Source: a virus. Taken from it: a stretch of 64,000 bases of DNA. Numbering within the stretch: position 1 is the first letter of the stretch; every line of letters begins with the position of its first letter. The stretch is taken from the IMG/VR virus record IMGVR_UViG_3300025161_000007, positions 3,496-67,495 of that record; one strand, 5' to 3'. Under the pieces are notes generated by a model. The model was not told the origin of the DNA. It was given only the letters and a program-made list of their open reading frames with translations, and did not search any database. Shown one piece after another: positions 60,717 to 63,326 of the stretch. Position numbers and translations under genes: made by a program.

Positions 60717-61171
60717 GGTTCACCTCCACTCACCAGCTTGCTATTCCATACCCACACGGGGAATATGAGCACACATGATAGAAATAGGCTTGTGTACATG
60801 CCAGACTGTCGCTAGACTAGAGGTGAGCGGGAGATGGGATTGTGGACAGAACCGGAGGGAGCAGAATTTTTGGTGGGGTATTAAGGTGGCACTCTTAAAG
60901 GGCAAAAGTGATCCCACCCCCCCCCACATAGCATGTTGTGCACGCCGCCATAGGGGGGCGTGTGTGGGAGGGAAGGGTCCGTGAAGTTGGGCCTGCCGCC
61001 TGAGGGAGTTGGGGGATCGTGGGAGAGAAGGCAGGGGAGCGCGTCTTGGGAAGGGGAGCTCTGATTGTGAGAGACGGCGACTGCCTACGGCGAGGCTTCA
61101 GTGAGCAGAGCGAGACTCTGCTAATTGAAGCCGCCGGCTGCTGAGAGGCGGCTGTAAGCAGCGGAGGTCGT

Positions 61172-61534
61172 ATGGCAGGGGAGCTCGTGCTGGCGAGGGT
61201 CGGGCAGGCAGTGCAAGCGGACATTAAGTTGCAGATCACCTATAGCAGTAAGGGACTACAGAAGGGGTGGACGTGGATTCCGCAACTTGGTCCTTCGCGG
61301 GACCTGTTCGCCCAGTATATGGACTGGTGCCGTGCCGGTCTCTGGCCGGCGATGTGGGAGGAGTACAGGCTGGCGTTTGAGGCTGAGCTTAATCAGCCTC
61401 GCCAGCAGGCGTATCTGAAGCGTATCGCCCTGCGTATCCAGCAGGGCAGGCGAGTAGCAATCGCCTGCTTCTGCCCGGAAGAGCGATTCTGCCACCGCAG
61501 CCTTGTCGCAGCAGCAGTGAAGAAGCTGCTGTGA
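61172..61534 (+). CDS. DUF488-family protein
   Basis: IPQLGPSRDL...WEEY...ACFCPEERFCHRSLVA. Confidence 0.75.
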   Translation: MAGELVLARVGQAVQADIKLQITYSSKGLQKGWTWIPQLGPSRDLFAQYMDWCRAGLWPAMWEEYRLAFEAELNQPRQQAYLKRIALRIQQGRRVAIACFCPEERFCHRSLVAAAVKKLL

Positions 61535-61664
61535 TAGGGGAGCGAAGTTCGCCGTAGGTGGTTCACGAGAACTGCCTGCGGCGAATTTCGCATTGCCAGA
61601 GCGTTGACTCTGGTAATTGAAACCGGCAGCTGCTGAGAGCCGGTTGCAAGCAGCGGAGGTTGCT

Positions 61665-61913
61665 ATGTTTCACGGTGCTACCATCCCCTTCCTGGAGACA
61701 TGCCCTGTCTGCGGTGACCCGATGACCGCGGACCAGCAAGTGGATGGGATCTGCATTGCCTGCGCAGAGCTTGCTCTGCCAGGCGACTGCGAGCATGACT
61801 GGATCGCAGTGCAAAACCGCCTGGACGACGACGGCTATCAGGTGGCACCGTTCTCGGTCTGGGTCTGCCGCATCTGTGCGGCAGTTATGACAGACGAGGA
61901 GGCCCCATTCTAA
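61665..61913 (+). CDS. Zn-finger hypothetical protein
   Basis: CPVC, CIAC, CEHDW, CRIC; GGAGG RBS. Confidence 0.65.
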   Translation: MFHGATIPFLETCPVCGDPMTADQQVDGICIACAELALPGDCEHDWIAVQNRLDDDGYQVAPFSVWVCRICAAVMTDEEAPF

Positions 61914-62226
61914 CAGAATCGCCGCAGGTGGTCGCGAGACTGCCTGCGGCGTTATTCTCGTTGCCAGAGTCAGGCCCCTCCCTCAGTTACGGGACAGGAA
62001 GAGGGAGGGGTCTGAGAGTTAGACTCGCCCCTTCCTGAGAGTCGCCGGGCAGCGGCGCGCCCAGGAGGGGGGCGGGAGGGGTGGGAAGTATGGGGGGAAA
62101 AATGTGCTATCGGGCCAGGCGCATTTTCCCCCTATAGGCAAATTCCTCGCTTCCCACCCTCTGGAATTGCCTTCGGCGAATATCGTGTTGCTAGAGTGCT
62201 CTAGCAATCTCACAAAGGAGGCAGTG

Positions 62227-62607
62227 ATGAGAGTGATCATTGCCGTTGACGGATCGTGTATCGGCAACCCAGGCCCCGGAGCCTGGGCTGCCATCATGAT
62301 CTATGGACAGCACAGGAAGGAGTTGGTGGGAGCAGAGCCAGCAACCACCAACTCCAGAATGGAGTTAGTGGCGGCCATCAGGGGGCTTCAGGCCCTCAAG
62401 CGTCCGTGTGAAGTAGAGCTTCACACGGACAGTTCGTACGTTGCAGGCGTAGTGTCCGGGCGCTATGCCTGCAAGACCAACCTGGACCTGGTCGGGGAGC
62501 TAAGGTCCCTGACCAGGGTCCACAAAGTCCAGGTCGTCCGCAGTGAGGACGACCTGGTGAAGCGGGCGCACAGCCTGGCACTGGCAGAAGCCAGGCTATG
62601 CGCCTGA
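62227..62607 (+). CDS. rnhA: Ribonuclease HI
   Basis: [31 protein letters not shown]. Confidence 0.9.
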
Positions 62608-62729
62608 GCGAATCTCGCCGAAGGCAAGCGCTATAATTGCCTTCGGCGAGATTTGCATTGCCAGACTGTTGAGTCTGGTAATCAAAGCCAGCAGCGCCGG
62701 AGGGCTGGCTGAAAGGCGCGGAGGGTAAT

Positions 62730-63185
62730 ATGGTAGTTTATTTCACGAGCCAGGGCTCGGTGGAGACCGAGCTCGTGGCCGTCACGTTCTTCCCCTCATG
62801 CGAGGGGATGGACCCATCCGCCTATGGGTGGATAGATGGATACAAGTTTGCTGCTGACACGGATCATGCAACGATCTATGTTCCGTCCTGGTGGCGGGTC
62901 CACCAGGTAGCAAAGGAAGCGGTGAAGCAGGGCATCCTTATTGCTGAGGAGTGCCGATCCTGCGAGATCGTCCGGCGCGTCCTGGAGACGGCCGGCAAGC
63001 ACTGGAGCTACCGCGGGGATATCATCTACCTCCGCGGAGAACCGTTCGCATACTTCCGTCACGTGGACGACGAAGTCCACGAGGCGGGAGTAGTCGGGGT
63101 CCCCGACGAGATCGGGGACCCCGATTGGAACGAGTTTACCATGAGGGAGATGTCAGATTTCCTCTCCCGCATGGCGTACGGATGA
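62730..63185 (+). CDS. Hypothetical protein
   Basis: GGAGG RBS after the pseudoknot. Confidence 0.65.
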   Translation: MVVYFTSQGSVETELVAVTFFPSCEGMDPSAYGWIDGYKFAADTDHATIYVPSWWRVHQVAKEAVKQGILIAEECRSCEIVRRVLETAGKHWSYRGDIIYLRGEPFAYFRHVDDEVHEAGVVGVPDEIGDPDWNEFTMREMSDFLSRMAYG

Positions 63186-63326
63186 TCCGCTCGCCGCAGG
63201 TAGCCAACTGCCTGCGGCGATATCCGCATTGCCAGACCATTGAGTCTGGTAACTCGTCCTTCCCACAAAGCCTATGCTCACCTCAACAAGGAGGGGGCCA
63301 AAAGGCCGGGGAAGGCAGCGGAATTA

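Follow-up and report, generated by a model that had tools for sequence, protein, structure and literature searches.

The 64,000-nucleotide (nt) stretch of viral DNA analyzed here (the window) corresponds to bases 3496 to 67495 of a single 67,495-bp virus contig (IMG/VR record IMGVR_UViG_3300025161_000007). Toward its 3' end lies an array of short genes separated by a repeated intergenic module of 60 to 130 nt, which fills the gap from a stop codon to the following Shine-Dalgarno (SD) site. The order within a complete module is hairpin 1, a 12-nt box, an AT-rich spacer, hairpin 2, a third hairpin in some copies, a GGAGG site, and the start codon. The box has the consensus A-n-TGCCTnCGGCGA; it is asymmetric, contains a small GCC-n3-GGC inverted repeat, and is always in the orientation of the genes. 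The contig ends overlap, with bases 1 to 116 equal to window positions 63294 to 63408 and the sequence then resuming at window position 63898. Accordingly, the map of the genome is circular, and the array extends past the contig junction into the contig's first 3 kb (L001).

Nine copies of the module on one strand

An earlier note, made from the window sequence alone, had counted six copies of the module. All six were found at the positions it gave, and the count holds for the window; the genome carries nine copies on the same + strand (family 1), six in the window and three past the junction, with no others in 67.5 kb. A covariance model built on the box and hairpin 2 (R1) scored the nine copies in the window and L001 at 41.2 to 68.0 bits, with E values from 1.8e-8 to 5.7e-15. 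The next matches, at 20 bits or less, were reverse-strand images of the hairpin 1 arms. The copies are listed below with their R1 scores and fold z scores where available.

61082..61171, +, c1, upstream of a DUF488 gene (48.0 bits; z, -3.99): box 61082-61093; extended hairpin 2 61094-61132 (core 61101-61125); hairpin 3 61129-61153; possible pseudoknot strand 61157-61162; SD 61163-61167
61542..61664, +, c2, upstream of an 82-amino-acid (aa) Cys-rich gene (68.0 bits; z, -8.57): hairpin 1 61542-61590 (23 pairs); box 61573-61584; hairpin 2 61592-61617; hairpin 3 61621-61645; putative pseudoknot strand 61649-61654; SD 61655-61659
61915..61968, +, c3, orphan, truncated copy with no gene after it (41.2 bits): hairpin 1 61915-61958; box 61941-61952 (last base T); hairpin 2 5' arm only, 61961-61968
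62168..62226, +, c4, upstream of the RNase H gene (56.5 bits; whole-region z, just -0.84): box 62168-62179; hairpin 2 62187-62208 (short loop); SD about 62216-62220
62608..62729, +, c5, upstream of a 151-aa orphan reading frame (ORFan) (65.6 bits; z, -7.62): hairpin 1 62608-62656 (20-nt arms, 95% complementary); box 62638-62649; hairpin 2 62657-62682; hairpin 3 62687-62709; putative pseudoknot strand 62715-62719; SD 62720-62725
63191..63253, +, c6, orphan copy in which an SD-like AAGGAGG is followed by no start codon (55.6 bits; z, -7.01): hairpin 1 63191-63220; box 63209-63220; hairpin 2 63228-63253
783 (contig position, L001), +, c7
1809 (contig position, L001), +, c8
2181 (contig position, L001), +, c9

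Exact matches to the core TGCCTnCGGCG numbered seven in the window, every one inside 61082-63219; six were on the + strand, and the single - strand match, at 62616, was the 5' arm of a hairpin 1. With up to one mismatch, 12 window matches were found against 6.4 expected. The remaining matches at up to two mismatches across the whole contig lay in coding DNA and had no downstream hairpin. A repeat finder returned a 47-nt unit in five copies and a 55-nt unit in three. The box is the sole multicopy conserved intergenic motif in the genome, and the family-1 copies are confined to one 6.4-kb array. In seven of the nine, a stop codon or noncoding DNA precedes the module and an SD site with a start codon follows it; the other two, c3 and c6, have no gene downstream.

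Architecture and strand specificity of the module

Hairpin 1 comprises 13 to 23 pairs in c2, c3, c5, and c6, where it begins 0 to 7 nt past the upstream stop codon. A different hairpin is present in c7 and c8, ending in or at the left flank CTGGAAWTGCC, and the hairpin of c9 ends 14 nt 5' of the box. Two copies, c1 and c4, had been described as lacking the 5' arm. This is correct for c1, in which the box lacks a partner arm upstream, and needs amendment for c4, in which one fold pairs 62137-62147 with 62161-62171, although this alternative pairing is weak (z = -0.84). In c3, as previously described, only the 5' arm of hairpin 2 is left, at 61961. Hairpin 2 has 9 to 10 pairs and a loop of 4 to 6 nt and is flanked by ATTG and TAAT or TAT. 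The AT-rich spacer that separates it from the box is 8 nt long in eight copies and 6 nt long in c9, and it often lengthens the hairpin 2 stem by pairing with bases 3' of the stem. In addition, hairpin 2 is followed in c1, c2, and c5 by a third hairpin, located 5' of the ribosome-binding site and absent from the earlier note. Part of its loop can pair just 5' of the SD site (GCUGCU:AGCAGC in c1 and c2, GCGCC:GGCGC in c5), a possible pseudoknot with two compensated positions in just two lineages.

The pairs of hairpin 2 were counted by script; the covariance-model alignment mis-registers c9. In the eight intact copies, 76 of 80 pairs were canonical (6 G.U, 1 A.C). Arms from noncognate copies formed on average 6.46 of 10 pairs, and a total of 76 was reached in only 1 of 20,000 permutations. 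Each of stem positions 5 to 10 shows two to four Watson-Crick pair types. The variable base of the box also covaries with its partner in hairpin 1, forming T-A in c5, G-C in c3 and c6, and G.U in c2.

When the whole intergenic regions were folded, the + strand gave z scores of -3.7 to -8.9 in eight of nine regions, with c4 (-0.84) as the exception, and its minimum free energy was lower than that of the - strand in eight of nine regions, by 3.2 to 22.3 kcal/mol. The c2 region had values of -76.1 kcal/mol on the + strand and -53.8 kcal/mol on the - strand, and the wobbles in its hairpin 1 fit the + strand only. The - strand also folds well, with z scores of -1.7 to -9.1 in eight of nine regions. 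The earlier observation that the mismatches are G.T wobbles favoring the + strand was borne out. Taken together, the covariation, the + strand-only wobbles, and the stronger + strand folding argue for a structure that forms in RNA of the gene strand, or in the + DNA strand; the strand bias agrees less well with a duplex-DNA site or a template-strand hairpin. The elements are genuine, strand-specific, modular intergenic cassettes.

An Rfam scan of 60500-64000, L001, and three related loci returned nothing at the gathering score. The best matches in 60500-64000 and L001 were far below it (e.g., 28 versus 106 bits) and belonged to unrelated microRNA and small-RNA models. A UNCG tetraloop was considered, since C(UnCG)G occurs in the box, and rejected: the two positions that come next are unable to pair, and no stable lone tetraloop hairpin results.

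The box could instead be an operator- or stoperator-like site at which a phage DNA-binding protein silences or activates the cassettes, with the hairpins incidental. In being 12 nt long, uniformly oriented, and placed in short gaps, the box is reminiscent of the asymmetric stoperators that Cluster A mycobacteriophages carry (PMC9283540), and both the inverted repeat in the box and the helix-turn-helix (HTH) proteins encoded at 15316-15870 and 9236-9862 would suit such a site. However, the copies are gathered in a single array and not distributed genome-wide, and a protein site leaves the covarying hairpins and strand-specific wobbles unexplained. We regard this explanation as very unlikely.

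Possible pairing of the box with the ribosome-binding site

The box can also pair with the region of the downstream SD site. In the five copies with a T as the variable base of the box, the z scores of this duplex against shuffled boxes were -2.87, -4.20, -2.91, -4.23, and -1.61; the value of -2.87 belongs to c4, and the duplex of c5 reached -18.8 kcal/mol (z, -4.2). The minimum-energy folds of c4, c8, and c9 hold a box:SD helix that encloses hairpin 2. Because a strong hairpin 1 takes up the box, hairpin 1 and the box:SD helix are mutually exclusive.

With regard to the 3' ends of the upstream genes, a T-rich tail follows one of the four long hairpins, and canonical T-run terminators are present elsewhere in the array. 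One of these, at L001 2893-2985, directly abuts an SD site, which argues for read-through polycistronic RNA in the array. Such RNA, together with the strand-specific folds and the near-perfect duplex of hairpin 1 (13 to 23 bp, up to 20 bp perfect), would also be expected if the modules were purely RNA processing sites, at which RNase III or a comparable nuclease would cut to give stable single-gene messages, with no promoter and no SD gating. This explanation is unlikely. Five of the nine copies lack a long hairpin 1 and nevertheless keep the box almost unchanged, and the primary sequence is therefore selected for more than that duplex. Conserved RNase III hairpins reportedly separate the early genes of T7, as Dunn and Studier are said to have described in 1983. 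In both cases hairpins separate small unrelated genes in one transcription unit and structure on the RNA strand matters; the persistence of the box without a hairpin partner in five of nine copies sets the present modules apart. To our knowledge, T7 RNase III sites do not pair with the next SD site in this way.

A polymerase candidate and expansion of the region in comparison with related loci

The genome encodes a protein whose homologs were used to find related loci.

1728..3989, +, 753-aa candidate two-barrel (YonO/RdRP-like) RNA polymerase, adjoining the gene of the single-stranded DNA-binding protein (SSB; 958-1647)

The 753-aa protein had no Pfam or PDB sequence match of its own and 10 distant homologs. 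In an alignment of nine members (the window protein and eight homologs), the DxDGD motif within AGDFDGDYF was invariant (D384, D386, G387, and D388). The Pfam RdRP family PF05183 was matched by four of the nine aligned members (best E, 1.9e-9), the window protein not being among them. On the basis of the invariant motif and the PF05183 matches of its homologs, the protein is plausibly a YonO-like two-barrel RNA polymerase.

In metagenome contigs, 21 loci carried a polymerase gene at 27 to 34% identity. None of the 21 loci contained the box or an R1 match better than an E value of 7. The RNase H gene was present in 11 of them, and in 8 its start lay 0.6 to 1.3 kb upstream of the polymerase gene. 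In the phage of the window, the corresponding distance is about 6.3 to 6.7 kb by arithmetic and is filled with ORFans. Compared with its relatives, the region has thus grown approximately six-fold, from about 1 kb. The six intervening ORFans (151, 119, 122, 299, 65, and 188 aa) gave no tblastn match in the 21 loci.

Other searches were made for relatives of the module. No match was obtained by blastn of 60900-64000 against the phage GenBank collection, and an IMG/VR terminase search and a polymerase-profile search found no relative. Two module DNA patterns gave 3 and 1 single matches in IMG/VR, all of them in coding DNA or at most 20.3 bits with R1. A search of species-representative genomes with an 18-base pattern of the module yielded 26 single matches, in unrelated taxa and all at most 22.7 bits with R1; approximately 17 matches are expected by chance.

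The polymerase-bearing relatives share an undescribed hairpin of their own, located 8 to 20 nt 5' of SD sites (L006, L009-L019, L023, and L024; for example, L023 at 8400, 8658, 9307, 9543, and 9906 and L016 at 1605, 2058, 2732, and 3095). It has a conserved CAGCGA flank, a covarying stem of 5 to 7 bp (12 distinct stems), and a loop end of GUGAGAG or GUGAAAGA. Copies numbered 31 on the gene strand and 2 on the other strand; shuffles averaged 2.9. One subtype lies directly 5' of the polymerase gene in seven loci (L009, L010, L012, L016, L018, L019, and L023). A second covariance model (R2), built from 12 copies of the GUGAGAG-loop hairpin in the relatives, found 13 copies of at least 48 bits in the relatives and did not match the third hairpins of the window, its best window score being 17 bits at 25432 (-). 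The hairpin of the relatives and the third hairpin of the window are alike in architecture only. The GUGAGAG-loop hairpin had no Rfam match, and its pattern had no match in IMG/VR. In the equivalent region of L005 (8314-9433), a private intergenic repeat (GCGGCTATCGCCGC, four copies) is situated 5' of SD sites. In this phage group, modules that are specific to one lineage may be common.

The earlier note had suggested that the modules are read by a phage-encoded RNA polymerase, with N4 hairpin promoters as a precedent. The part concerning the enzyme was partly supported, in that the 753-aa protein is plausibly an RNA polymerase. An N4-type promoter has a hairpin of 5 to 7 bp formed by the template strand; here the stems have 9 to 10 bp or more and the wobbles favor the coding strand, although the - strand folds well too. 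A version closer to T7-type promoters followed by a leader hairpin can be formulated, in which the box and its left flank (about 14 to 19 nt) would be the promoter of the YonO-like enzyme, transcription would start at the 3' end of the box, and hairpin 2 would be the 5' stem-loop of the transcript. This would agree with an asymmetric, gene-oriented box that is the only repeated intergenic motif in a genome encoding a candidate polymerase with an invariant DxDGD. In addition, bases of the spacer immediately 3' of the box form part of the outer stem of hairpin 2, which places the start of the functional RNA there or farther upstream. Since the structural genes are served by consensus promoters of the host type, no obvious target is left for the phage enzyme. 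According to PMC5467207, YonO transcribes one late operon from a single promoter, and the promoter sequence of this class was still undefined in 2017. In contrast, the array here consists of accessory genes 5' of the polymerase gene. Furthermore, the box is missing from all 21 related loci that carry the polymerase gene, and in four copies it is buried in a hairpin of 13 to 23 bp whose wobbles fit the RNA strand. We therefore consider a phage-polymerase promoter quite unlikely. If this explanation were true, the nine copies would be the first promoter consensus for the YonO-like polymerase class, and a YonO-like enzyme would drive an accessory-gene array and not a single late operon.

A sister repeat and a polymorphic gene cassette

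Downstream of c6, a second repeat (family 2) consists of a double hairpin before an SD site and begins with AAATGCC...GGCGA, a sequence similar to the family-1 box. The features of this part of the array are as follows, with the tyrosine recombinase considered below.

63380..63424, +, family-2 copy 1: perfect hairpin 63380-63397 and 11-bp hairpin 63398-63424, followed by an SD site and a 119-aa gene
63864..63905, +, family-2 copy 2, upstream of a 122-aa gene running across the contig junction
63408..63892, +, presence/absence gene cassette of 485 nt that includes the 119-aa gene (63447-63806)
14296-15339, tyrosine recombinase gene, approximately 17 kb from the array

In the sequencing run that holds the region, the main contig is circular (66,817 nt; depth, 26.5; 30-nt end overlap) and skips 63408-63892, with 32 other letters instead. 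A separate contig of 853 nt with a depth of 14.8 carries the 63408-63892 cassette. The edges of the polymorphism lie inside the family-2 hairpin, in long direct repeats. The record analyzed here is itself a circle closed with both alleles of the polymorphic site, the 119-aa gene and the 32 nt that stand in its place. As for family 1, the truncated copy c3 suggests that indel edges may also fall in its motifs.

The cassette behavior proposed in the earlier note was upheld in several respects: the region is expanded in comparison with relatives, truncated or orphan copies exist (61941 and 63209), and a neighboring gene is polymorphic exactly at the sister repeat. The integron-like mechanism attached to that proposal did not hold up. 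It would treat the hairpins as attC-like sites that are cut and joined by a dedicated integrase, and it has in common with integrons the imperfect, strand-biased hairpins that flank single-gene cassettes, one of which, close to the modules, is polymorphic in the population. However, the only tyrosine recombinase is encoded about 17 kb away and scored 53.8 bits against the TIGR02249 cutoff of 265. It looks Xer- or phage-like, with its best match to Xer-like models, also below cutoff. Neither an integron integrase nor an arrangement of attI and the integron promoter Pc is present, and each gene has its own SD site and an elaborate leader. The attC cores (RYYYAAC/GTTRRRY) were not seen in the hairpin 1 arms, which were inspected by eye only, without an attC model. 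The edges of the polymorphism in long direct repeats are those that homologous exchange predicts. An integron-like origin is accordingly highly improbable.

A third repeated motif follows stop codons in this area and consists of CCGCCC-loop-GGCGGG and then TAYAARTARCGG. It is located at 63318-63356 and 63809-63846 in the window and at about 640-690 in L001, and two of the three sites are followed by a terminator-like hairpin or T-run.

The modules as possible PeSL-like regulatory cassettes

The reading that we prefer, with slightly less than even confidence, is that the modules are composite regulatory cassettes resembling the promoter-early stem-loops (PeSLs) of T4-like phages and that they are located in a hyperplastic accessory-gene region of a siphovirus. 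As described in PMC2839356, PeSLs are stem-loops with G-T pairs that lie between or over the -35 and -10 elements, 5' of ORFans in hyperplastic regions, and the commonest layout places the stem-loop in the spacer between -35 and -10. They mediate indels (Arbiol et al. 2010, PMC2839356; Comeau et al. 2014, PMC4122927).

In the mechanism that we propose, the cassette would act mainly as RNA on the gene strand. Following the upstream stop codon, hairpin 1 may end, attenuate, or stabilize the upstream message, or it may provide a double-stranded processing site. The pyrimidine-rich box (..TGCCTnCGGCGA) would be the 3' arm of hairpin 1 and, where hairpin 1 is weak or absent, would pair with the next GGAGG. 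Hairpin 2 would clamp the long box:SD helix, so that hairpin 1 and this helix would be exclusive and would together gate translation of the downstream gene. By virtue of its position between TTG and TAAT, hairpin 2 may add a weak host-type promoter, as in PeSLs. Finally, since the module is repeated in one orientation, it would offer homology for the gain, loss, and replacement of the intervening genes. Termination or processing by the module, gating of the SD site, and recombination at the family-1 copies are what we infer from its structure and distribution. The earlier description of a terminator or processing element combined with a promoter is retained in part, as strand-specific folded modules at the 3' and 5' ends of genes fit a terminator, attenuator, or processing role.

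The promoter component was examined in the module sequences. The placement of hairpin 2 between TTG and TAAT recalls a -35/-10 pair with the stem-loop as a spacer, and the -35-like hexamers (TTGCCA and TTGAGC) match the consensus at four to five of six positions. Further points counted in favor of a promoter are the sequences TTGAGC-16-TATCTT in c8 and TTGAGC-16-TATATC in c9 and the location of c7 and c9 after canonical T-run terminators. Promoter activity of the module, whether host type or phage, is a candidate function only. Two other promoter readings of the box were rejected by eye: for sigma-54, the GG-to-GC spacing is 10 and not 12, and for the extracytoplasmic function (ECF) type, a CGTC-type -10 element was not seen.

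The modules and PeSLs have several properties in common. Both are short repeated intergenic cassettes that separate a stop codon from the SD site of the following gene, 5' of ORFans in hyperplastic regions. Both contain a stem-loop that includes G-T pairs and often spans or separates the -35 and -10 positions, with an AT-rich stretch upstream. Indels and replacements have their edges in the repeats of PeSLs, and here one presence/absence polymorphism has its edges in the sister family-2 repeat. They also differ. PeSL promoters fit the sigma-70 consensus and are proven to be active, whereas the modules have weak candidate hexamers. Unlike PeSLs, the modules have a strictly conserved 12-nt box, which is at once the 3' arm of a long hairpin upstream and a possible pairing partner of the SD site, and three copies have a third hairpin with a possible pseudoknot. 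PeSLs occur in approximately 50 copies in T4-like phages, compared with 9 copies in an unrelated siphovirus here.

A second point of comparison is the start-associated sequence (SAS) and its extended form (ESAS) in Cluster K mycobacteriophages, a repeat found at the translation starts of some nonstructural genes (Pope et al. 2011, PMC3203893). The SAS is likewise asymmetric and in one orientation, with an upstream inverted repeat at a variable spacing. In the description of PMC3203893, however, it contains the SD site itself and occurs in 11 to 19 copies across half the genome; the ESAS arms are conserved in sequence, whereas the stems of the window covary, and the sequences are unrelated.

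A number of results weigh against PeSL-like cassettes. With respect to the promoter, the -10-like hexamers are poor, with two to four of six matches (e.g., TAATTG, TAATCA, and TAACTC), and the hexamer spacers are 15 to 16 nt (15 in four copies) and 11 nt in c4. A generic sigma-70 consensus scan called none of the module hexamers. The clear promoters of this genome are of a near-consensus sigma-70 type with spacers of 16 to 17 nt and lie outside the modules:

58979 (+) and 58984 (-), back-to-back pair of near-consensus sigma-70-type promoters within 58978-59010
54253 (-), perfect promoter TTGACA-16-TATAAT upstream of the portal gene
15797 (+), promoter TTGGCA-16-TATAAT beside the HTH repressor-like gene

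With respect to the 3' ends, hairpin 1 is no canonical terminator, as the U-tract is missing in three of four copies. The sequencing runs that hold the region comprise one DNA run, a sediment metagenome that is possibly the source, and no RNA run. For the gating of the SD site, c1 and c2 showed no box:SD signal (z scores of -0.3 and -0.4), and cognate pairs were barely better than noncognate pairs (-12.5 versus -11.5 kcal/mol). Part of the pairing may be just a reflection of the fact that all SD sites are GGAGG. The fold of c4, moreover, is no better than its shuffles. For the exchange of genes, no variants were found at the family-1 copies in a single sample, in which 60600-63407 showed no joints, and searches of the phage collection, IMG/VR, species genomes, and metagenome contigs found no close relative with the module. 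In L023, the order of the DUF488, Cys-rich, and RNase H genes is the same as here; this conserved core is therefore not freely shuffled, and the extra genes have been inserted.

Other features of the phage genome

Judged by its gene content, the phage is siphovirus-like and probably temperate. The siphovirus markers are an SPP1-type portal, a tail tube protein, a terminase, and a major head protein. A 2,935-aa open reading frame (ORF) at 38231-47038 had no family match and is taken as the putative tape-measure gene from its size and place. In addition to the tyrosine recombinase, the HTH repressor-like gene, and SSB, the other genes include ThyX and a class II ribonucleotide reductase. A 23-nt repeat resembling GCGCATAGAGGGTTCCTTTCGCG occurs three times, at a spacing of 55 to 63 nt, immediately 5' of the gene for the tyrosine recombinase (window 13995-14135); the three copies may be arm-type or attP-related sites.

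A 33-aa ORF with a strong SD site (60615-60716, -) is located between a bidirectional hairpin at 60582-60610 and the leader of the array. Strongly G-rich noncoding stretches of the + strand with stable hairpins are found at the head of the array (60830-61075) and between c3 and c4 (61990-62165). Neither stretch had an Rfam match or a convincing ORF.

Implications

Within one module, three mutually exclusive pairings can be drawn among a decoy arm, an anti-SD-like box, and the real SD site. Repeated regulatory cassettes are among the few concrete mechanisms proposed for the gain and loss of phage ORFans, and so far they have been documented mainly in T4-like myoviruses. The combination of a module structured on the RNA strand, an approximately six-fold expansion of the accessory-gene region, and a live polymorphism in an unrelated uncultivated siphovirus suggests that the strategy may be general.

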